Virus record (IMG/VR): IMGVR_UViG_2703718838_000010
Reading direction: 5' to 3' (one strand)
DNA: 15,448 nucleotides
Origin: a virus
Lineage: Duplodnaviria; Heunggongvirae; Uroviricota; Caudoviricetes
The notes under the pieces were generated by a model. That model worked only from the letters and a program-made list of their open reading frames with translations. It had not been told where the DNA came from and searched no databases. This document shows positions 213 to 15,448 of this stretch, in pieces. Made by a program: the position numbers and the translations under genes. Position 1 is the first letter of the stretch; each line of letters opens with the position of its first letter.

Positions 213-797
213 TTACTCCCTGACAGGGTTCGTAGGCCACTCAATATCAGGTGCAGTTGACGTATCAACACGGTTCAGCAATACCCGATACTTTTTCCAT
301 GCTTCCAGCAACGAGATTTCTTCCTCCGTTGCAATTTCCAGATCTGCAGCATCCTGAAGCGGCGCAATATGCTCACTGGCTACCTGCATCAGGTTGTTTT
401 TTGTTTCTTCCGCCTCCCGGATCCGGAACAGTTTTTCTGCTTCCGTATCCTTCACCCAGGCTGTGCCGTTCCACTTCTGAAACTCCCCTTCCGGCGATAA
501 CCAGGTAACATTTTCCGGTAACGGACCGAGTTCAGAAATAAATAACGCGTCGCCGGAAGCCACGTCATAAACCGTTTTACCCCGATGATCTTCAACGAGA
601 TGCCACGATGACTCATCACTGTTGAAAACAGCCACGAAGCCTGCCGGAATATCTGGCGGTGCAATATCGGTACTGTTTGCTGGCAGACCTGTATGAGGCG
701 GAATATATGCATCACCTTCACCAATAAATTCATTAGTTCCGGCCAGCAGATTATAAATTTTTATGGTCCGTGGTTGTTCACTCATTCTGAATGCCAT
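213..797 (-). CDS. tfa: Tail fiber assembly protein (lambda Tfa-like, 194 aa)
   Basis: ORF track 213..797 (-). Translation [24 protein letters not shown]... matches my recollection of lambda Tfa almost throughout. ATG at 797..795 shares one nucleotide with the stf TAA stop (799..797), typical translational coupling. Stop TAA at 215..213. Confidence 0.9.
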
Positions 798-3700
798 TAT
801 GCAAGCCTCACAATATAGTTAAATGCGATGTTTTTGACGGTGTTTTCCGCGTTACCAGCTGCGTTAACGGTGATGGTGTGTCCATGTGAACCAATCGCAA
901 CGGAGTGCGTATGCGCACCAATACCTACAGTATGTGCGTGTGCACCTGCGCTTGCAGCAGTACCCGATACAGAGTGCGTATGAGCGCCTGCAGAAGAAGT
1001 GTTAACACTGTATTTAGAATAATCAGGTGATCCACTTCCCGGAGCACCTTTGGTGCCACCTGAAACAAATGTTATCGAATGGGTATGTGCACCGGCTGAA
1101 GCAGCCGTACCGCTAACACTATGGGTATGCGCCCCGGTGTTATTCGTGGATTTAGTGCCGTAATCAAACGACGATGTGGTTTTCGTCCCCAAATCCGTAC
1201 TGGATGCGCTGGCGCTGTGGGTGTGCGATTTAATGCCGTCCTGTTCCTGAGACAATACGGCCCGACCACTGGCAGGTTTGCCCTTAATCGTCCAGCCACG
1301 CATATCAGGGATCACACCTGACGGATAAGCGGCTGCAAGTTTCGGGTAAGCAGATTTGTCAAAAGTCTGCCCCTGCATCAGGGCATAACCAGACGGAACG
1401 GTATCTGATGGCCACGGGATTGGTGCACCGACTGGATAAAACTCTGCAGGAGGATGAGCTGAGGTGTAAAGCTGCGCCCACGGCGACCAGTTTGCGTCGG
1501 TCGTATCCCGTCGTGAACGAATAAATGCCGGAGCATGAGCACCGCTTGTACCACTCCAGCCGATGAGTAACTCACCTTCGCCAACGGCTGTCATCCCTTT
1601 CAGGTGAATGATATTTCCATACGCTGTTGGATATCCGTTGTTATACACCTCGTATAACTCAAGACCTGTTGCCCCCTGCGTATTGTCTGTCAGCGCGGTT
1701 ACCCGACCTTTTGAAGCCAGATTAACTGATGATACTGCTGTTCCACCTGACGGTAACGCCCCGATCTCTGATGCCGTTGGCTTATTTCTGGAGTTATAGT
1801 CCCTTCGCCAGCCAGGTGAATAATCTGTTCCGTGATTAATATAGGTAAACTGGGCGTTAGTTGTTCCACCACCAGTGGAGGTGGTCGGTGTGGTAATGCG
1901 GATCGTCATCGCTGACTTTATCCCCATTACTTCAATGACAGCTCCGGCGAGATGAATATTACCGCAGCCAGTATCAGTAATGATTTTATTATTGCCATAA
2001 GACCAGGAACCCTTGCACATCCAGTATGGATGGTTAAATGCTCCCTGAGAATCCAGCCACTCGATAAACTGTGCAGTCGTCCAGTCTCCTGTTGTTGTGC
2101 TTACTGACCCACCGAAGGCGCGGCAGGCACCAATATTTTTCGTAAAGGTGTCTTTGCCAGGGATATCCGCACCGTTCTGATCTTTCTGCAGACGTTTCTC
2201 AGCATTGTCATTGGCTGCTTTTACTGCCTTTGGCGTTGCCGCCAGCGTTTCAGACGTGCTGTTGGTCGCGCTGCTTAGCTGGATTATCCCTTTCTGTGCT
2301 GTCGTTGCATCCTGTGCGGTGTATTTCCCGTTAGCCAGGTCATACGCGGCCTTAACGGCTTTTGGCGTTGCCGCCAGTGACTCGGAAGTGCTGTTGGTCG
2401 CACTGCTGAGCTGTACTATCCCCTTTTTCGTCGTGCTCGCATCCTCAAGCGCCACGGCGGATGCAATATCCTCTGCCCGTTTTGCCGCTGTCTCAGCGCG
2501 CGTTGCTGCAGATTCCGCCGTACTTTTGCTCTGAGCTGCTGCCGTCGCACTGCCAGCTGCCTCTGTCGCCTTCGTGGATGCCGTCGTGGCGCTACCCTTC
2601 GCTGCTGACGCCTGTCTGGTCGCCTCATCTTTTGAAGCAGACGCCGATGAGGCCGATGACGACGCCGAACTGGCTGACGATGCGGCAGCCGTTTTTGAGG
2701 ATTCTGCGCTGGTTTCCGACGCTTTCGCGTTCGTTTCGGATGTCTTCGCTGCGGAAGCAGACCTCGCTGCTGCGCTGGCCTGTTCAGTGGCTTCGCCAGC
2801 CTTCGTTGTGGCTGTTGAAGCAGACGATGCGGCGCTTTCTGCCGATTTTCCGGCGGCGGTGGCACTGGCTGAGGCCTGCCCGGCACTTGTTGACGCTGCA
2901 CTGGCAGACGACGCAGCCGCTGTTTTTGAGCCTGCCGCAGCCGAGGCGCTCTGTCCCGCTGCCGTTTCAGAAGACCTGGCGTTCGTCTCTGACGTTTTTG
3001 CCGCCTTCGCGGAATTTCCTGCCGCTGTTGCCGAGGAAGCTGCGCTACTGGCGCTCGAGGATGCGTTCGTTTCTGATGATTTTGCCGCCTCTTTTGAAGC
3101 CGCCGCATCCCGGGCTGAGGTGGCAGCTTCTGACGCTTTCGTAGTCGCGGTGGATGCAGAAGTGGCTGCTGATTGTTGTGACGCTGCAGCATTCGTTTCT
3201 GACGTTTTCGCGGCACTGGCACTGGTAGCTGCCGCGCTTTTTGAGGACTCTGCAGCGGCAGCACTTTTTGATGCTTCAGTGGCCTTTGTTGATGCCGTTC
3301 CTGCGCTGGAAGTCGCTGACTGAGCCGACGACGCGGCCTGTCCGGCTGACGTGCTGGCTGCGCGTGCTGAGCCTGCAGCATCAGTCGCATGGGTTGCCGC
3401 CTCACGGGCTGATGTGCTGGCATCACTGGCTGACTTCTTCGCGGCTGCCGTGTTCTGTGCCACCACGGACGCGTTACGCGCCACCTCTTCCACCATCAGC
3501 TCAAAACGGCGCAGTGCCTCCGGACGGGCATCATCCTCCGTCATGGCACCGAGAAAATCATTCAGCGTACCGGGTCGGGAATCTTCATACACTGTGATGG
3601 TCCCGGCATGTGACGGCGGGAATCCTTCCACCAACAGAATAACGCTGTACTGACCGTACTCAACGTCCATACTGTAACGCCCGGCTTCATCCGGATTTTC

Positions 3701-3820
3701 AGATGCCAGCGTGTTCACCACCACCGTGGTACTGTTACGTTTTGCTTTCAGCTGGATTGTGCAGTTCTGTACCGGTTTTCCTGTGCCGTCTTTCAGTACA
3801 CCTGAAATTTTTACTGCCAT
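797..3820 (-). CDS. stf: Side tail fiber protein, intact long form (about 1007 aa), with Ala/Ser/Thr-rich quasi-repeats and a C-terminal His-x-His repeat domain
   Basis: ORF track 797..3826 (-) begins MNMAVKISG; the track start at 3826 is GTG, while the ATG at 3820..3818 gives [26 protein letters not shown], the lambda Stf N-terminus as I recall it, and is preceded by GGGGTGA. C-terminus has repeated GAHTHS / GAHAHT / GSHGHT motifs and ends [11 protein letters not shown]. Confidence 0.85.
2228..2421. repeat. Two imperfect direct repeats of about 63 bp (2228..2290 and 2359..2421, period about 131 bp) inside stf, encoding the repeated motif [11 protein letters not shown](S/T)[11 protein letters not shown]
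   Basis: Seen in sequence: ctttggcgttgccgccagcgtttcagacgtgctgttggtcgcgctgcttagctggattatccc versus cttttggcgttgccgccagtgactcggaagtgctgttggtcgcactgctgagctgtactatccc. Confidence 0.8.
2430..3430. repeat. Low-complexity, internally repetitive GC-rich segment of stf encoding the Ala/Ser/Thr-rich shaft ([12 protein letters not shown]-type quasi-repeats)
   Basis: Translated stf ORF shows degenerate repeats ([43 protein letters not shown]...). The same DNA yields long spurious ORFs in other frames (2416..3426 -, 2574..3323 +), a hallmark of repetitive GC-rich sequence. Boundaries approximate. Confidence 0.6.
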
Positions 3821-3828
3821 ATTCACCC

Positions 3829-3858
3829 CACAAAAAAGCCCGCCTGAACCGGCGGGCT
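3829..3858 (-). terminator. Rho-independent terminator-like hairpin downstream of lom (stem gcccgcc / ggcgggc, loop 6 nt, then T6 on the minus strand)
   Basis: Plus strand 3832..3858 is aaaaaagcccgcctgaaccggcgggct; on the minus strand this is agcccgccggttcaggcgggcttttttgtg. It lies 27 nt after the lom stop (TGA at 3887..3885) and directly before the stf RBS and ATG at 3820. Confidence 0.6.
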
Positions 3859-3884
3859 GTCATAACACTGTGTTACCTGGCTAA

Positions 3885-4484
3885 TCAGAATTTATAACCA
3901 ACACCCACGATGAACCCGTCAGTGCGCCAGTCACCACTGCCGGAGCCTTCATAAGCGACATCAATGGCCACGGATTCGGTCGGGTTAAACTGCACGCCAG
4001 CTCCCCACGCCAGAGACGTGTTGCTGTGGCGACCGTCATCACTTCCGGTCAGCACATCGTGCTTTTTCCCCTTGTTGTCAGTTACGCGGAGATAATCCCC
4101 GGAGAAAGTCGACACACGGCTGTAAGCCACACCCGCCATCGCATACGCGCTGAACCATTCATTCACGCGCACAGACGGCCCCGCCATTACGCTGAACCAG
4201 CGGTTACGAACGGAATCTTCATGCCAGCGGGTATCGCTGTAACGGGTAATCTGGCGATTCTTGTCTCCTGCATAGCTGAACGACGTCACCATCCCCAGTG
4301 TGTCCGTAAACTCATAACGGTATTTCACGTTAATCCCGTTCAGATCATCACTGCCGGGAACGTTCGTCCGGGCATGAAGATACCCCGCGCTCAGCGTGGA
4401 CTGATGTTCAGACGCCCATGCAGGCGCACCGGATACGGCCAGACAAATGGCTGCGGACAAAATGGCGGCATAAAGTTTACGCAT
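3885..4484 (-). CDS. lom: Outer membrane protein Lom (Ail/Lom/PagC-family beta-barrel; lysogenic-conversion moron)
   Basis: ORF track 3885..4484 (-), 199 aa. N-terminal signal peptide [24 protein letters not shown] and C-terminal ...[10 protein letters not shown] ending in Phe, typical of outer-membrane beta-barrels; matches lambda Lom as recalled. RBS GAGAGG 5 nt upstream of ATG (4484..4482). Confidence 0.9.
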
Positions 4485-4506
4485 AATTACCTCTCGCTTT
4501 TCTGCA

Positions 4507-4532
4507 ATAAAAAAGGCGTCATTTCTGACGCC
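4507..4532 (-). terminator. Rho-independent terminator-like hairpin between J and lom (stem ggcgtca / tgacgcc, loop tttc, then T-run on minus strand)
   Basis: Plus strand 4509..4532 is aaaaaaggcgtcatttctgacgcc; on the minus strand the hairpin is followed by ttttttattgcag. It sits 19 nt downstream of the J stop (TGA 4553..4551) and about 30 nt upstream of the lom ATG. Confidence 0.55.
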
Positions 4533-4550
4533 CGTTCTGGGTTATAAAAT

Positions 4551-7952
<3,402 letters not shown>

Positions 7953-7971
7953 TCACGCTCCATAAACGACA

Positions 7972-7991
7972 AAACCGCCCGCAGGCGGTTT
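7972..7991 (-). other. Perfect 8-bp stem / 4-nt loop hairpin (aaaccgcc-cgca-ggcggttt) in the 60-nt I-J spacer
   Basis: Seen in sequence at 7972..7991. On the minus strand it is followed by tgtcgtttatggagcgtgagg and then the J ATG. Could be a weak intrinsic terminator or RNA-processing structure. Confidence 0.4.
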
Positions 7992-8009
7992 CACATAAAA
8001 CATTTTGCA

Positions 8010-8681
8010 TCAGCGACCAATCACCACAACCTGACCACCGTCCCCTTCGTCTGCCGTGCTGATCTCCTGAGAAACCACCCGCGACCCCACACGCATTTCA
8101 CCGTACAGAACAGGCAAAACATTGCCCTGAGCAACCATGTTATCCAGTGAGGAGAAATAGGTGTTCTGTTTGCCGTTATCCGTTGTCTGTGTACGGGGAG
8201 TTCTGGCTTTCGGTGCCAGCATCTGCGCCACACCACCGAGCACCATACTGGCACCGAGAGAAAACAGGATGCCGGTCATACCACCGGCCCCAATGGCTGC
8301 CCCCCATGCTGCAAGGGTGGCTCCGGCAGTAAAGAATGATCCGGCAATGGCGGCAGCTCCCAGGACAATCTGGAATACGCCACCTGACTTGGCCCCGGCG
8401 ACTCTGGGAACAATATGAATCACAGCACCATCAGGCAGAGTCTCATGTAACTGCGCCGTTAACCCGGACGAGCTGACGTCCCGCCCGGCAATCCGTACCT
8501 GATACCAGCCGCCGCACAGTTTCTGACGAAACGCCGGGAGCTGTGTGGCCAGTGCCCGGATGGCTTCAGCCCCCGTTTTCACACGAAGGTCGATGCGGCG
8601 GCCAAATCGTTGTAAATCCCCGTAAAGGCAGATGCGCGCCATGCCCGGTGACGCCAGAGGGAGTGTGTGCGTCGCTGCCAT
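8010..8681 (-). CDS. I: Tail tip assembly protein I (223 aa)
   Basis: ORF track 8010..8681 (-). MAATHTLPLASPGMARICLYGDLQRFGRRIDLRVKTGAEAIRALATQL... matches lambda gpI as recalled. C-terminal half is a Gly/Ala-rich hydrophobic segment. Its 5' end overlaps the 3' end of K by 103 nt in another frame. Confidence 0.9.
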   Translation of the reverse strand: MAATHTLPLASPGMARICLYGDLQRFGRRIDLRVKTGAEAIRALATQLPAFRQKLCGGWYQVRIAGRDVSSSGLTAQLHETLPDGAVIHIVPRVAGAKSGGVFQIVLGAAAIAGSFFTAGATLAAWGAAIGAGGMTGILFSLGASMVLGGVAQMLAPKARTPRTQTTDNGKQNTYFSSLDNMVAQGNVLPVLYGEMRVGSRVVSQEISTADEGDGGQVVVIGR

Positions 8682-9322
8682 TTGTCGGTATACCTCTCTC
8701 GTTTGCTCAGTTGTTCAGGAATATGGTGCAGCAGCTCGCCGTCGCCGCAGTAAATTGCGGCGTGATTCGGCACCGATGAACCAAAACAGCACAGCAGCAC
8801 ATCGCCAGGCTGCGCCTCTGTCAGTACGACACGGTAAAAACCCGTTGCCTCCAGATTATCCAGATAGAGATTCTGACCGTGACGCCACCAGTCATCCCCG
8901 CGATGAAAATCCGGCATCTCAATTCCCGCCAGATGGTAAGCGTCCCGGAACAGCGTGTAACAGTCCGTCACCCCGTGCTCAAAGCGCCGCCCGGTGAGAT
9001 GCGGCACACAGCGGAACTTATGAATCGCCCCCCGGCAGACCAGCAACCACGGCAAATCACTCTGCACCTGCAGCCGCCGGTCAGCCTCACTCAGCCAGGG
9101 CAGACCACCGGGGTGGCTGTGGACCAGCGCCACAATCTCACCCTGCATTTCTGCCTGCAGCCAGTCCTCCGGCGACATCCGGAAATACGCCTCCGGCCTA
9201 CCGGAGATATTCACGCCGGGAAAATATCTTTCCCCCTCCGGCGTTCTCACCACGAAGCCGCACGACTCCGCTGGCGCACATCGCCGGGCGTGCGCCAGAA
9301 TCGCTGATTCTGTCTCTGTCAT
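8579..9322 (-). CDS. K: Tail tip assembly protein K, long form (247 aa) with N-terminal MPN/JAMM-like domain and C-terminal NlpC/P60-like domain; the classical 199-aa form would start at 9178
   Basis: ORF track frame 8579..9364 (-). ATG at 9322..9320 (MTETESAILAHARRC...) lies 4 nt after the L stop (TAA 9329..9327). The classical start MSPEDWLQAEMQ is the ATG at 9178..9176. A JAMM-like motif HSH-x7-S-x2-D (VHSHPGGLPWLSEAD) is visible, and a Cys/His pair typical of NlpC/P60 (GVTDCYTLF ... NHAAIYCGDGELLHH) lies in the C-terminal half. Confidence 0.8.
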   Translation of the reverse strand: MTETESAILAHARRCAPAESCGFVVRTPEGERYFPGVNISGRPEAYFRMSPEDWLQAEMQGEIVALVHSHPGGLPWLSEADRRLQVQSDLPWLLVCRGAIHKFRCVPHLTGRRFEHGVTDCYTLFRDAYHLAGIEMPDFHRGDDWWRHGQNLYLDNLEATGFYRVVLTEAQPGDVLLCCFGSSVPNHAAIYCGDGELLHHIPEQLSKRERYTDKWQRRTHSLWRHRAWRASAFTGIYNDLAAASTFV

Positions 9323-9326
9323 GGGT

Positions 9327-10025
9327 TTACTGCGAAAGTTTGTTAATGGAAAGGAAGCCGCCAAAGTTGCCGACGTTATTGCGAAACTTACAGCCGCTCA
9401 GGCATTTGCTGCATTTATCCTTCGTGATATCGGACGTTGGCTGGTCATATTCATCCGCGACCGCCGGACCGTGATAACCGCACTCATCACCGCGATAGGT
9501 CCAGGTGCAGGTATTAGCAAGCATGATGCGCCCCGGAAAAACAGCGCCGTCCGTTTCCGTCGGCGTGGACAGTACAAAGGAGGCACTGACCGCGCTCAGT
9601 TCGCTGCACTGCTCAATACGCCAGCGGCTGATCACCTCCTGCTCCGGATCGGCGTCACTGTTTCCGTTGACGAAGTTCACCGCATCCAGAAAACGGGCGT
9701 AAACCTTACGCCTGACCACCGTTCCGCCGACCAGACTCTGCAGGTCTTCCGCCATCCCGGTGACCATGCCGTGCAGATTAGAGACTTTCAGCGTTGGCCT
9801 TGCACTGGCACCTTTGCCGTTCATCTCAAATCCACTCCCCTGAATGGGATAGGCCTGATACTGCCGACTCTGCCAGGTGACAGACTCTCCTTTCTCGTTC
9901 TGCTCATTGCAGAAAAAGTAGCGATCCCCGCCTACCTCGGTCAGGTCGATTTCCCAGAGCACCACGCTGGCCGACTGCTCCGCACGAATGCATTCATTCA
10001 GCGTTTCCTGTTGTATGTCCTGCAT
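9327..10025 (-). CDS. L: Tail tip assembly protein L (232 aa), with a C-terminal Cys cluster
   Basis: ORF track 9327..10025 (-). [33 protein letters not shown]... closely matches lambda gpL as recalled. C-terminal cysteines (CTWTYRGDEC ... KDKCSKCLSGCKF) fit the iron-sulfur-binding gpL family. ATG of L shares a nucleotide with the M stop (ATGA overlap at 10025). Confidence 0.9.
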   Translation of the reverse strand: MQDIQQETLNECIRAEQSASVVLWEIDLTEVGGDRYFFCNEQNEKGESVTWQSRQYQAYPIQGSGFEMNGKGASARPTLKVSNLHGMVTGMAEDLQSLVGGTVVRRKVYARFLDAVNFVNGNSDADPEQEVISRWRIEQCSELSAVSASFVLSTPTETDGAVFPGRIMLANTCTWTYRGDECGYHGPAVADEYDQPTSDITKDKCSKCLSGCKFRNNVGNFGGFLSINKLSQ

Positions 10026-10363
10026 CAGATCACCACTTCGTCAAACTGACACGAAAAATCGGTATAGGTGATATGTTCTGTCGCTGACCACGTTCGACAC
10101 ACCACTCTGATTTTTCTGTTAATACCCGGCGGGCGCCAAAAAAAAGATTTATAGCCTTCATGCCGGGCTAAAAATTTTTCAAATGAATCACGTTCATTCG
10201 CCTCAACTTTGAAATCACAGGTGAAAACGCGCAGAGAATGATTAAGTCCATTTGGACTTCGTTGCTCATAACCATCATCAAATCTTACAGTTTTTATCGA
10301 TGGTTTATTTTCTGTTTTCATTCCATCCTCTGGTAACCAGTGAAATTCTTCCGTATTAGCCAC
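10025..10363 (-). CDS. M: Minor tail protein M homolog (diverged from lambda gpM); start uncertain between GTG at 10363 (112 aa) and ATG at 10321 (98 aa)
   Basis: ORF track 10025..10363 (-). Position between tape measure and L, and conserved core [10 protein letters not shown] / KSFFWRPPG recalling lambda M (VRFGDGYSQR / KSFLWTPP). The GTG start overlaps the tape-measure stop by 8 nt; ATG at 10321 has GAGG 5 nt upstream. Confidence 0.75.
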
Positions 10364-13300
10364 TTAACATTCCCCCATCACGTCGCATATTTAACAGATT
10401 GCCCTGCACCCGCTGATCAACCATCCCCATAAGTGCTTTTATTGCCTGAGGGCCAATCTCTCCATTCTGGCCGTCATTTTGAATAGTGATTTGGTATACA
10501 GGGGCATAGGTAATATCTCCGCCTCCATTACCACTTTTACTATTAATAGCTCTGACACCAAGAGAACCATCGGAAGTTCGTGTTAATGGCATAATGGCTT
10601 CCGGTCCAGCCTCACCAAAAACACCAGCCCCTTTTGCAAAAGCAAAAAATTGCGGGGAATCATAAATACCGTTCGAATACGTGCTCAATGACGGAGACTC
10701 ATAAACACCGCCCTTTGCATTCGGAATAAATTTACTAATAGCACTCCCGATAGTTCCTAAAATCCCCCCAGAAGAACTGTTACTAATGCTGTCGATAATC
10801 CCAGTAATTGAAGCCTTTAATGCTATTCGACTAAGATCCGAAATCACGGAAGTAGCGAAAGAACGAAAATTTGCCTTGCCTGTCGTGACAAAATCACCCA
10901 GCGCATCGGTCATCCCATCAAACATCTGAGTCGTGGTTGATTTTATCTGCTCACTGATATCCTTAGTGTCATCCAGCCAGTTATTGAATCCCTGGGAGGC
11001 ACCACTAACCCAGTCTCCTGCCTGAATATCGAGCTGCTCGTTTTTCTGTCTGACAATTTCTTTTTCCCGTTCCAGAGCATCATTCAGAGCCTGCATTTTC
11101 TCTTGAAAAACATGATCTGACATTCCACGGGATTTATCTGCATAGTCACGTTCAAGTTGCAGACGCTGATTGTTATATCCATGTTCAATCCGCAGTAATT
11201 CCTGCTGGCGTTGCTGATTTTTATCGCCAACCCCATAACCAGCAATCTGAATATCATACCCCTGCTGACGATTATCAATCGAAGCCTGCAATGAATCACG
11301 CCATGCTGTTATTTCGGCGGATTCCTTGATTAGCCTGTTATTTTTTTCAATCGCAACATTTTTCTCCATCAACGTGGTTATTTCTTCCCGGTGTAAGAGA
11401 AGCGATTTCTGATCCTGGGTTAATTTCGATGATGGTCGTGACTCTAGGTCGGCAATCCGCTGACGCCACTTAACCAGTTCCTGTTCAGAGGAACTTAATT
11501 TAACGGTCAACTCAGCTTGTGAACTTAGTAACGCATTCTGTTGATTCAGATGATCAATCATTCGTTGGGCTGCATCATCAGAATAACCTTTCGCCTTTGG
11601 TTGCTTTGGATCTTTATAACGCTCATTTATTTGAGCGATAAGATTATTATATTCTTCCTTTGAATACTGATTCTTTAGCTTTTCCAGTTTTGCAAGTTCA
11701 CTAGCTCTCTGCTGCTCCCGGGTCTGATATTGTTTTGAAAAGGCATCTGCTCTCTGTCTGAGTTCAATTCCTTCCTGTTGTCGCTTGTTGTAATCGTTTA
11801 TTGATGAATTTAGTACGTCCTGAGCAATTTTTTCTGCTTGAAGTACGCCCAATTGCTGCTTTAATCGTGCCAGCCTTTTATTTTGAGCTCCGCCATCTCC
11901 AATGCCACCTAACCCGAAAACTCCGGGTCGGGTATTTTTTTCTATTTCATCAATTTGACGGAGAACATCTGAGATTTTTTGATCAAGGGAGGCCTCACGG
12001 CCAATATCCAGCATGGAATCCCATGCCCATTTTGCGGAGTCTGCGACAGCTTTCCATGCAGTCTCAAGATAACCAAGATTTTCTTTAATCTGGTTGGTGC
12101 GCTGGATCATTGAGGATGAGTATTCTTCTGTCGCAATGCGGGCGGCCTCCTGCTGGTTCCCTTCATCCTGTAGCGCCTTAATCTGGTTATAAGTCGCAAG
12201 TGTCAGAAAATGGTACTGATCATTAAGTTTTGATATGGCACTGACAGGATCCTTTGCAATTTCATTGAAGTCATTAACCAGTTGTTCGGTTGATATTCCT
12301 GTTACTTCGCTCGTTTTTACTATCGCTGTCGTCACTTGCTCCAGCGAACTGCTCGCTACCTTTCCCGAACGCACAAGCTGATTTAATACTGCCGCCGCAG
12401 CACCAGTTGTCGAATCAGCCGCATTCCCGGCACGTTGAGCTATATCGCCCAATTGCCCGCTGGTTGTCCCCAACTGATTTCCGGTAAGAATAAGAGATTT
12501 ATTAAATTCGTCCTGCTCCTGAGAGCCTTTATAGTAAGCCAGTCCTAAGACCCCAACGGCTGCTGCGGCCAGGGTAAAAGGATTAATTAATCCCAGCACA
12601 TAAGAACCTACACCTTTGATCGCCGGGCCAATCCCACCGAACATATCTTTTAGCTGGCCGCCCTGCTGCATTAACACCATAAATGGCGACTGACCAGTGG
12701 ACAACCCAACAACAATATCCGTCATTTGTGCAGGCAACATGCGCATAGCAAAAGCCGTTTGTTTTGCCGACATTCCGGTTTTGCTTAATTGTGATTGAGT
12801 AACCTCAAGCTCACTCCGCATAGCACGAAGTTTTCCAGAAAGCTCCTCATACATTTCAGGAGAAAGCATCCCCTTAGCTTTTGCTTCATTGAGCTGTTTC
12901 TGTTGTTCTACCAGACGATTAAAAGCAGTTCCGACAGGATCAAGTTGAGCAATCAGACGTTGCAAAGCAACAACCTGTTCATCATGCGCTTTTGCTGCTT
13001 CTCGCTCTGCCTGAGCCTCTCCGGTAAGCTCTCGCCGTGTTTCCTGTATTTTTCGGCTATAATTCTCAAACTGAGAACCATTTATTTTCCCGGATGCAAA
13101 CGCAGCATTAAGTTCATCATGCTGTTGTTCAAGATTTCTTAGCGCCGCAGCCAGAGGGTCGATCTTGTCCAGCATTCTTTGAAAGGCCTGAGCCTGCGCT
13201 TCCTGCTGGGCGGCAGCAAGTTTTCCGGCCTTCTCGGCTTCTCTCTGCGCTTGCGCAACCCCGCTCAATTCCTCTGTGGTTTCATTAAGTTTACGGACAA

Positions 13301-13589
13301 GAAATTCATATTCTTCTTTATCAATAAGCCCTTTATCGAAAAATTTCTTTAATTCAGAATAGCGTCGACCGACAGTATCAATTGCGGCACCAACTGGATC
13401 AATAGCTGCTTTTAATTTTGCGAGCGCGTTCTTCTCATCTTCTGTTGCCTTAGTCACTTTCCCTGCGCTATTTGCAGCAGTTTCCCCAGCCTGCGTCATT
13501 TTGACTAATGAGGAGGTCAGATTGTCAGCATTATTTTTCGCTCCAGTGCTATCAATAATTATTGCGAGACGCGAGGTTTGCTCTGCCAT
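10356..13589 (-). CDS. Tail tape measure protein (1077 aa; functional equivalent of lambda gpH but a different, more AT-rich lineage)
   Basis: ORF track 10356..13589 (-). Largest gene, between the chaperone pair and M. N-terminal about 55-aa tandem coiled-coil-like repeats (…[20 protein letters not shown]…, …[20 protein letters not shown]…, …[20 protein letters not shown]…) and a hydrophobic Gly-rich central segment ([19 protein letters not shown]...[14 protein letters not shown]). ATG 13589..13587 preceded by AGGAG. Confidence 0.85.
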
Positions 13590-13607: not shown

Positions 13608-13634
13608 ACAAAAAACCCACCGCGAAGTGGGTTT
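13608..13634 (-). terminator. Rho-independent terminator-like hairpin between the chaperone T-frame and the tape measure gene (stem aaacccac / gtgggttt, 6-nt loop, T-run on minus strand)
   Basis: Plus strand 13610..13634 is aaaaaacccaccgcgaagtgggttt; on the minus strand it reads aaacccacttcgcggtgggttttttgttg and ends about 20 nt before the tape-measure ATG. Confidence 0.55.
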
Positions 13635-13754
13635 CAGGCGACATAATAGTAGATATAGCGATTACGAGGCCACGCAATGCTTTTCTCCAGGAGCATCATC
13701 GATTTAATTAAAGACACCATCACATCTCTGTAACAGAGTGTACGTAATTAACAA

Positions 13755-14071
13755 CTACACACACTGCTCCTGAAAATACTGGTCATCCAGTGCAAAGATC
13801 ACTGCTTCAAATTCATCGCGCTCAATCAATACCGGATGAGTGGCTAAATATTCATTTATCTCTGTCAGAGATAAAGGCAAAGGCACCCCAGCCATTCCAG
13901 CATAACGTCGGGCACGGTATATTACCGAATAGGCGTACAACAACTCCTTAAGCACCGGGTCTATTTCTGGTTCCGGTATCGGTGGCAACCTGAGTTTTTC
14001 TCGCTTCCATCTTGCCTTTTCCCCCCTTTCTCCCCCGAACTCCGATAACCACCGCTGGGCAGCTATGGCTT
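13755..14071 (-). CDS. T-like -1 frame extension of the tail assembly chaperone (expressed only as a G-T fusion, about 105 aa added; fusion about 255 aa)
   Basis: The ORF track lists 13755..13988 (-) from a TTG start, but the same frame is open upstream to 14099 and overlaps the end of the G-like gene, exactly as in the lambda G/GT arrangement. Stop TAG at 13757..13755. Confidence 0.65.
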
Positions 14072-14524
14072 TTTTATCGTATCCTGCTTCTGCTGCTCTT
14101 TACCCTGGGCGATGCTGGCTGCTTCTGCAAGGATCTGCCAGTACAACTCTGGATTCTGCTTAAGCAGCGCGATCCCTCGTTCTGCCGTATATTCCAGTGC
14201 AACCTCAACACCATTAACCAGTTCACCAACCCCTTTCCAGTCTTTCAGCAGATAACGAGCGGCATTATCAATGAGTAAATCATCAACAGAATCCACCTCG
14301 GAAACCTTTGAAATATCAAACTCCTTCGTTCCGACGTGCAAACTGGCATCCATTTTCTCAATGTGGCGACGGATTAATGCATTACGGGAGCGATACTGAT
14401 CGTTATCGCTGCTTGCCACCAACAGTTTTAACCCGTCTACAGGTTTTAAGTCCTTCATTGGCGTAAACCAGCGTTCTCCACCAATGATAATTTTCTGATT
14501 AAGAATAAACATCCATAACCTCAT
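14063..14524 (-). CDS. Tail assembly chaperone (gpG analog, about 150 aa); start either ATG 14524 or ATG 14512
   Basis: ORF track 14063..14524 (-). Sits between the major tail protein and the tape measure gene, ends ...KEQQKQDTIKKP-stop (TAG 14065..14063), and carries an A_AAA_AAG slippery heptamer 2 codons before its stop. No similarity to lambda G itself; the call is by synteny plus the frameshift architecture. Confidence 0.7.
   Translation of the reverse strand: MRLWMFILNQKIIIGGERWFTPMKDLKPVDGLKLLVASSDNDQYRSRNALIRRHIEKMDASLHVGTKEFDISKVSEVDSVDDLLIDNAARYLLKDWKGVGELVNGVEVALEYTAERGIALLKQNPELYWQILAEAASIAQGKEQQKQDTIKKP
14069..14075 (-). promoter_or_regulatory. Programmed -1 ribosomal frameshift slippery heptamer A_AAA_AAG (minus strand) joining the G-like frame to the downstream T-like frame
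   Basis: Minus strand reads ...GAT ACG ATA AAA AAG CCA TAG in the G frame. A -1 slip on A AAA AAG enters a frame that I translated by hand as open from 14099 to the stop at 13755 (…KKAIAAQRWLSEFGGERGEKARWKREKLRLPPIPEPEIDP…). The same heptamer is the classical E. coli dnaX slip site. Confidence 0.7.
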
Positions 14525-14572
14525 TCAATGCGTCCCCCTGTAGGGCAGTACCACAGGAGGAATAACGGAAAA

Positions 14573-15436
14573 TCAACTAATCGCCTCAGCACTGGCTTTT
14601 GCGATCACGGCAGCCGGGGAATTTTTTTTTCTGGTTATCGTAGGTGCTTCATCTGCTGCGGTAATGCTCAATTGAACCTGGATAATGTCGCTATTACCCC
14701 CATCAGGCCATTCACCTGACACCTGAACCTTCGGGAAACTGAAAGTGTATGCCCCCTCTCCATTCGAAAGCGTGAAGCTGAACGGAACTGTTTCTCCAGT
14801 CAGTGTTTTACTCCAGATTTCCCACGCGGCTTTAGACCATGAAAGCGTCACCGTACCGGACGGTGTAAAAGTAGTCGGAATATTTGCTCCTGCATAAGGC
14901 GAGCCAGTCCCGATACAACGCTGTGTCTGGAGTTTGTTATCGAACTGAATATCAAAACTGTCGATACAAAAACCGTTACCTCCGGCAACACCATTCAGGC
15001 TTACTGCTGAAACCTCCTTAAACGAATAACGTAGCTTTCCTGCACTATCCACAGGTTCGCCTTTGATAAAATTCGTATCATCGGCCTTTGATTCCCAGTC
15101 CAGTCCGGCAAAGGTTACGGTCGCTGTAATATCGCCGTCGTTAGGGATCTGCATTTTCCATGAGCCAACCTGCGCTCCTCTGACGACAGAGGCAATTCCG
15201 ACATCGGACGCATAGGTCGCCAGAGAAAATGTTATTCGCTCATTCCCCATTGTCAGAGAATCGCCTGACCATTCCGCGCCGAAACAGGATGCAAGAAAAT
15301 CATCATGTTGACCCCAGCGAAATTTGGTACCAACATCACCGCCGACATCCACAGTGCCAGGCGTCGCCCCCTGAGCCATCCGGGAGCCACCAATCTCATT
15401 ATTTTCGCCTTTATTCTGGGTGGGTTTTACTCCCAT
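14573..15436 (-). CDS. Putative major tail (tube) protein, about 270-287 aa; start uncertain (ATG 15436, internal ATG at 15379, or beyond the window edge)
   Basis: ORF track 14573..15436 (-). Lies immediately upstream of the chaperone pair, the usual position of the major tail protein in siphovirus tail modules. The frame stays open to the window end (15448). Not similar to lambda gpV by eye, so the call is by synteny. Stop TGA 14575..14573. Confidence 0.6.
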   Translation of the reverse strand: MGVKPTQNKGENNEIGGSRMAQGATPGTVDVGGDVGTKFRWGQHDDFLASCFGAEWSGDSLTMGNERITFSLATYASDVGIASVVRGAQVGSWKMQIPNDGDITATVTFAGLDWESKADDTNFIKGEPVDSAGKLRYSFKEVSAVSLNGVAGGNGFCIDSFDIQFDNKLQTQRCIGTGSPYAGANIPTTFTPSGTVTLSWSKAAWEIWSKTLTGETVPFSFTLSNGEGAYTFSFPKVQVSGEWPDGGNSDIIQVQLSITAADEAPTITRKKNSPAAVIAKASAEAIS

Positions 15437-15448
15437 AAGCGCTAACTT

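Follow-up and report, generated by a model that had tools for sequence, protein, structure and literature searches.

We have found that two adjoining open reading frames in a 15,448-nt stretch of viral DNA (the window, by which we mean the whole of the stretch analysed), every gene of which is carried by the minus strand, very probably encode the two paired tail assembly chaperones of a Rac-type lambdoid E. coli prophage, as judged from profile matches, gene order and comparison with relatives. We are similarly confident, from the patterns of conservation set out below, that ribosomal frameshifting by -1 yields a fused product of the two frames at this locus. What is new is that the Rac-type E. 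coli pair, including ydaY of E. coli K-12, belongs to the G/GT class and stands unannotated, and that a series of interchangeable and imperfect heptamers occupies one codon. The frameshift itself is of a well-known kind, the case is one of an annotation gap and not of new biology, and the understanding of frameshifting and of tail assembly is left unchanged by it; the 252-aa fusion can be added to the proteomes of these prophages.

The gene pair and its putative slip site

The longest form of the first reading frame runs from 14524 to 14063 (minus strand; 153 aa), and the second, as listed by an ORF caller, runs from 13988 to 13755 (minus strand; 77 aa) from a TTG start, sizes and a start codon that agree with those in the first-pass annotation. 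The ATG at 14524 lies four codons before another at 14512, which has GAGG 6 nt upstream of it and is the start shared by all homologs (MF/ML). Because the homologs all begin at ATG 14512, the likely products are a G-like protein of 149 aa, encoded by 14512..14063 on the minus strand with its stop, TAG, at 14065..14063, and a fusion of 252 aa; initiation at ATG 14524 would instead give products of 153 and 256 aa. The fusion of about 255 aa that was originally predicted comes close to the product from ATG 14524, and the product from ATG 14512 is the likelier one.

The first frame ends GAT ACG ATA AAA AAG CCA TAG, and within this stretch the heptamer A_AAA_AAG (14075..14069, minus strand; the plus strand at 14069..14075 reads CTTTTTT, that is, AAAAAAG on the coding strand) begins at a third codon position. 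It is therefore in the X_XXY_YYZ phase of the frame of the first gene, which we refer to as the G-analog, and the stop of that gene lies two codons past it (CCA TAG), so that both the phase and the position first described for it were correct. Between 14099 and 13755 the -1 frame stays open (114 codons, with the stop TAG at 13757..13755) and overlaps the end of the first gene by 37 nt. That this frame is open upstream of TTG 13988 and reaches into the first gene had also been pointed out, and is so, with the difference that the opening extends for 37 codons upstream of the TTG and not for 34; 27 codons separate the slip point from the TTG. The segment that we refer to as the T-analog (14069..13755, minus strand) comprises 104 codons in the -1 frame and a stop, and its first 27 codons precede TTG 13988, the earliest possible start. 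The conceptual GT-analog fusion (252 aa) joins 14512..14069 to 14069..13755 on the minus strand, with base 14069 read twice. We also note that residue 51 of the T-analog (approximately 13917..13919, minus strand) is Tyr here (SVIYRARRY) and Ser in >90% of homologs, including the near-identical copies in E. coli, K-12 and SPF_0923.

The identification of the pair as tail assembly chaperones, initially made from the sequence without database searches, is borne out by profile searches and by gene order. The first protein matches the PHROG 313 'tail assembly chaperone' profile with an E value of 4e-46 and the fusion does so with an E value of 1e-50, covering phrog_313 positions 13-246 of 258, and the two frames lie between the tail tube and tape measure genes. 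Since the fusion matches across both of its parts, the phrog_313 profile already spans the G and T portions. When the -1 part is searched alone it matches phrog_1189 (E 1e-35), the function of which is unassigned in PHROG, and Phage_TAC_18 (PF23812) aligns with residues 183-251 of the fusion below its gathering threshold (18 bits vs 27; E 0.003). Pfam and NCBIfam profile searches returned nothing for the G-analog; homologs appear in a large protein-database table under a newer Pfam accession, PF27119.1. The proteins had been said not to be lambda G and T by sequence, and we agree, since lambda G and T give no BLASTP alignment with the pair at E <= 100 and are assigned to different PHROG families (phrog_42, 32165 and 39, as against 313 and 1189 for the pair here); nor was any Pfam lambda G/T family matched at E <= 0.01.

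Searches of the PDB by sequence and by profile gave zero matches. An AlphaFold model of the G-analog, built with 29 close homologs, has a pLDDT of 48 and is too poor for a chaperone fold to be assessed. The model of the T-analog is all-helical (pLDDT 75) and has no significant fold match in BFVD, where the best E values are 0.07-0.7; the top three of these non-significant matches are to a 'pre-tape measure chaperone' of CcrColossus (E 0.07), a tail assembly chaperone of Loki (E 0.53) and a 'tape-measure chaperone' of Sansa (E 0.72). Pell and colleagues are said to have described, in 2013, a spiral structure of a tail assembly chaperone.

Conservation of the frame, the site and the coding signal

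The locus was compared with two sets of relatives, one of 24 loci drawn from annotated phages and from genomes sampled once per species, representing 13 genera, and the other of 80 IMG/VR loci. The 24 loci come from phages or prophages of Escherichia, Shigella, Citrobacter, Klebsiella, Scandinavium, Pectobacterium, Serratia, Pantoea, Mixta, Erwinia, Pseudomonas and Acinetobacter. In every one of them the T frame is -1 relative to the G frame, and the same is true of 79 of the 80 IMG/VR loci; the sole exception, L026, shows two single-base deletions in homopolymers beyond the slip site. At the aligned codon the heptamer is A_AAA_AAG in Escherichia, Shigella, Citrobacter, Klebsiella and Scandinavium, G_GGA_AAG in Serratia, Pantoea, Mixta and the Acinetobacter phages, and G_GGG_AAG in Pectobacterium, with imperfect forms in Erwinia phage Gungnir39 (C_GCA_AAG, followed by TAA) and in the Pseudomonas phages phiPSA1 and Aurca01 (G_GAA_AAG). 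The heptamer is invariant in 79/80 IMG/VR loci and the third positions of neighbouring codons vary: in the A_AAA_AAG group the flanks take the forms ACG/ACC/ACA, ATA/GTA and CCA/CCT/CCC/CCG/TCA, and AAA AAG is found there without any synonymous alternative. The position of the zero-frame stop shifts among relatives from 1 to >30 codons past the site. The suggestion in the first-pass annotation that homologs would share the arrangement is thus upheld, a -1 overlap and a slippery site being retained at the same place in both sets, and the family offers a clean case for comparison, with canonical heptamers substituting for one another at one codon. We note that the Pseudomonas phages have a GGGAAAG 25 nt downstream of the position that aligns with the heptamer; it is in phase with the +1 frame only, and we therefore discarded it as the place of the shift.

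Taken simply as a word, the heptamer shows no excess in the window, where four copies are seen on the two strands together against 3.0 expected. Counted in phase over the genes of the window (4,890 codons), X_XXA_AAG is present at just two places, and the odds of an in-phase site arising by chance within the 12-codon overlap are roughly 0.003-0.005. Chance is ruled out by the conservation of the position of the heptamer across genera.

Over the 34 codons that follow the heptamer, substitutions relative to the window fall 87:74:213 at positions 1, 2 and 3 of the -1 frame, and amino acid identity is 65-85% in that frame vs 21-33% in the other two, which mostly contain stops over the same interval. 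The fusion aligns end to end with fusions rebuilt from nine other genera or phages, and ten reconstructed fusions (23-70% identity to that of the window) have nine invariant columns, among them the Lys at AAG. When the T part was used as a query against 1.84 billion proteins, 55 representatives were obtained, and no start codon for the second frame is conserved either among these or among close relatives: the T-only proteins called in close relatives are of 60-138 aa with scattered starts, and the 55 representatives are fragments of 52-180 aa without a consistent N-terminus. Taken together, the frame, the site, the coding signal and the lack of a start of its own argue that ribosomes translate the -1 segment from the slip site onward, and that they would reach it only via the upstream gene.

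It could be supposed instead that the pair consists of two independent genes, with the second protein made from its own start (TTG 13988 or GVG 13955) and the heptamer incidental, and a separate ORF of 66-77 aa is indeed what ORF callers and RefSeq annotate. We consider this very unlikely. The 27 codons from the heptamer to the TTG are conserved as -1 protein with third-position-biased substitutions, the relatives have no start position in common, and the slippery site is kept, or is exchanged for another slippery site, at the same codon; moreover, direct reading of the sequence ahead of TTG 13988 finds no spaced Shine-Dalgarno sequence.

Homopolymer runs can induce slippage by RNA polymerase (reviewed in PMC5009743), and a run of six A is present at the site. 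A polymerase that dropped or added an A in this A6 run would produce a fused-frame mRNA that the ribosome could translate without slipping. We regard slippage of this kind as most improbable here, because it would require the homopolymer itself, and the exchange of heptamers among relatives argues against such a requirement: the G_GGA_AAG and G_GGG_AAG of relatives contain no long homopolymer and are classic sites of tandem tRNA slippage. In addition, the conserved feature is phase-specific (X_XXA_AAG in the zero frame), and phase is relevant to the ribosome only. Efficient slippage by bacterial RNA polymerase also usually needs runs longer than six A.

Lastly, the prophage might be defective and the gene once continuous, its split into two frames being due to a frameshift mutation or to an error of sequencing. 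Many of the carriers are cryptic prophages, the Rac copy in K-12 is 5'-truncated, damaged copies are known, namely L026 with its two homopolymer indels and L045, in which an IS1 has inserted, and in an E. coli protein, P0001, a deletion fuses both frames. The chance that the arrangement as a whole is the product of decay seems to us negligible, since the identical -1 arrangement recurs in 24/24 and 79/80 loci and in many genera, is found in functional isolated phages (SPF_0923 of Salmonella, Klebsiella phages, Gungnir39, phiPSA1 and TRS1), and has no continuous in-frame counterpart among the representatives found with the T part.

The IS1 insertion in L045 (recognized by an InsA-like translation) lies within the T-analog, and the damage in L026 and L045 could reflect either decay or sequencing errors. 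P0001 (240 aa) is a natural variant with both frames fused in the genome, apparently through a deletion between two copies of GCAGAAGCAG (...ILAEA joined to GYDKKAIAAQ...); it would yield the fusion without the short product, and so probably comes from a defective prophage.

The proposed slippage and its likeness to known systems

In the mechanism that we envisage, most ribosomes would finish the first gene (14512..14063) at its stop to give the 149-aa chaperone, and a small fraction would slip one base back on A_AAA_AAG, with the P- and A-site tRNA-Lys re-pairing from AAA-AAG to AAA-AAA; the slipped ribosomes would then read 104 further codons in the -1 frame to give the 252-aa fusion. By analogy with lambda, the N-terminal part shared by the two products may coat the tape measure protein, the C-terminal domain encoded in the -1 frame may recruit the tail tube protein, and a fixed low rate of slippage would set the ratio of the two products. 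G-T frameshifting is conserved in most long-tailed dsDNA phages (PMC5009743, PMC5313236), and for lambda, where it has been the subject of a series of studies (Levin 1993, Xu 2004, 2013, 2014, in the summary of them given in PMC5009743), the products are made in a ratio of 30:1 that matters for assembly (PMC5009743). A_AAA_AAG, as well as G_GGA_AAG, is highly shift-prone in E. coli (PMC5009743), and for this reason the exchange of one for the other among relatives fits slippage by tandem tRNAs.

We find no conserved element that might stimulate the slip. The 84 nt after the site fold worse than shuffled sequences (z = +1.5), the consensus fold of 13 sequences has an energy of -0.76 kcal/mol with no covarying or compensatory pair, and no hairpin or pseudoknot is conserved 5-9 nt after the heptamer, the placement of the dnaX/IS911 type; the stimulatory structure that the first-pass annotation had thought might follow the slip site was thus not found as a conserved feature. 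A local hairpin in the E. coli sequence was rejected as a stimulator, as it begins 0 nt after the heptamer and is not kept in relatives. Many relatives have AGGA 6 nt upstream of the site, and it is absent from Pectobacterium, Serratia and one Acinetobacter phage; being neither universal nor separable from the conserved Gln-Glu/Asp codons that it overlaps, it was rejected as a Shine-Dalgarno-like stimulator. With no conserved stimulator, the efficiency of the slip would rest on the heptamer alone, and, as is described for lambda G-T, slippage is probably low-level, at a few percent, and heptamer-driven.

The pair resembles gpG/gpGT of lambda in being flanked by the major tail and tape measure genes, in having a short product and a -1 extended fusion, in the placing of the slip site a few codons before the first gene's stop, in an A-site codon, AAG, that is decoded by tRNA-Lys, and in the lack of a conserved downstream stimulator at the locus here. 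The heptamer of lambda, G_GGA_AAG, is used by some relatives of the pair, and the window pair has A_AAA_AAG. The two systems differ in that they have no detectable sequence similarity and fall into different PHROG families, in that the T-analog is of 104 codons here vs about 144, and in that the tube protein that would be the partner here is a Phage_tube_2-type one and not gpV.

A closer parallel is found in TRS1_18/TRS1_19 of Acinetobacter phage vB_AbaS_TRS1 (NC_031098), where the first gene is likewise in PHROG 313, the two T parts are homologs with 39% identity in a tblastn comparison and the -1 arrangement lies at the aligned position and is represented in GenBank by a two-piece joined CDS. 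This joined CDS is a predicted annotation, and its span of 746 nt fits a -1 shift, given that 746 + 1 = 3 x 249. TRS1 differs from the pair here in that identity over the fusion is 23-25%, in its heptamer (G_GGA_AAG) and in a zero-frame stop that lies 26 codons past the site vs 1 here. The joined CDS of TRS1, in the same PHROG, indicates that the arrangement has already been recognised in the family. The description of the frameshift as unannotated accordingly holds for E. coli RefSeq and for the closest phages and does not extend to this distant relative.

The dnaX gene reaches an efficiency of about 50% by means of an upstream Shine-Dalgarno-like element and a downstream hairpin. It and the elements of the IS911/IS3 family share with the locus described here the heptamer A_AAA_AAG and tRNA-Lys slippage in E. 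coli (PMC5009743), which in dnaX underlies the tau/gamma pair. The locus here differs from dnaX in having no conserved downstream structure, in that its AGGA lies upstream at a distance of only 6 nt and is not universal, and in that what is made is an extended fusion and not a truncated product.

The one part of the signal kept without exception throughout the family is its A-site half (A_AAG), which tRNA-Lys reads. The imperfect heptamers are those in which the P-site half departs from the canonical form (C_GCA_AAG, G_GAA_AAG) and the A-site AAG is kept, which suggests that the slip of a single tRNA-Lys may suffice. P-site re-pairing may therefore be dispensable in the chaperone family, and the slip in Gungnir39 may be aided by the adjacent stop codon. 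If this were true, the family would constitute a natural series with which to gauge the contribution of each half of the heptamer.

The tail operon and ydaY of E. coli K-12

By synteny the genes run from the tube gene through the G-analog, the T-analog and the tape measure gene to M, L, K, I and J. The tail tube gene (14573..15448, minus strand) matches Pfam Phage_tube_2 (E 1e-27) and has its 5' end cut by the edge of the window; the length of the complete gene in RefSeq is 963 nt. The tape measure gene (10356..13589, minus strand) matches Pfam TMP_2, TMP_4 and Tape_meas_lam_C, and past it lie lambda-like M, L, K, I, J, Lom, side tail fibre and fibre assembly genes. Over a 1.1-kb region containing the locus, Salmonella phage SPF_0923 and many E. 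coli chromosomes show 99.9% identity to the window, and the locus is present in 1,073 of 5,426 complete E. coli genomes (approximately one in five).

The tail module is a mosaic, in which the tube and chaperone genes (13755..15448) are of a non-lambda kind (Phage_tube_2, phrog_313) and the 213..13589 side, with M, L, K, I, J, Lom, the side tail fibre and the fibre assembly genes, is of lambda type. In the tape measure protein TMP_2 is found together with a C-terminal domain of lambda type, and a recombination joint may therefore fall inside this protein. The contrast between a non-lambda block made up of tube and chaperone and lambda-like genes from M onward fits a model, put forward by analogy, in which tube protein and chaperone are partners, and might be taken as one small, indirect hint in its favour.

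Several other features of the operon are of note. Between the stop of the T-analog and the start of the tape measure gene is a gap of 165 nt, which holds a 29-aa ORF with a GTG start (13723..13634, minus strand), the end of which is overlapped by a terminator-like hairpin and T-run (13635..13612, minus strand). Klebsiella relatives have one or two additional genes in the same gap, for example a 'membrane protein' in L003, and the gap looks like a moron insertion site within the tail operon. The tail tube gene has a run of nine A (14622..14630, minus strand) 19 codons before its stop, which gives in-phase A_AAA_AAA and A_AAA_AAT; the -1 frame after the run ends at 13 codons and the +1 frame at 6, and so a slip there would swap only the C-terminal tail of the tube protein, without extending it. 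The tape measure gene, too, contains the heptamer of lambda, G_GGA_AAG, in phase (12360..12366, minus strand), probably by chance, as the -1 frame beyond it is open for only 28 codons.

In RefSeq the first gene, for which an internal start is often assigned, bears either the name 'protein YdaY' or the name 'phage-derived protein YdaY family protein', and the -1 ORF in E. coli is a 'hypothetical protein' or is uncalled; no joined CDS or slippage annotation was found in E. coli RefSeq or in the records of the closest phages. The ydaY gene of the Rac prophage of K-12 (b1366) has 99.9% nucleotide identity to the window over 825 nt, and both the heptamer and the entire 104-codon -1 frame are intact there, unannotated. 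In K-12 MG1655 (Rac locus L025, 4378..5455) ydaY lacks its first ~30 codons and immediately follows the ParB-like ynaK, the gene for the tail tube has been lost, and the tape measure gene is reduced to the remnant ynaA. These comparisons lead us to conclude that K-12 ydaY is a remnant of the Rac tail assembly chaperone, one which, in a difference from the window pair, can have no assembly role in Rac. Our search of the literature found no paper tying ydaY or Rac to a tail assembly chaperone. As the signal is intact in the truncated gene, a YdaY-T fusion could be produced from the cryptic Rac prophage. The joint proposition that a single tRNA-Lys slip suffices in the family and that K-12 ydaY makes a YdaY-T fusion is one that we put forward tentatively, as possible and somewhat doubtful. 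We note, finally, that a 474-nt unannotated gap before ynaA holds the complete -1 frame of the T-analog, and that two database proteins, P0019 and P0040, are chimeras in which other N-termini are joined to the C-terminal part of YdaY.
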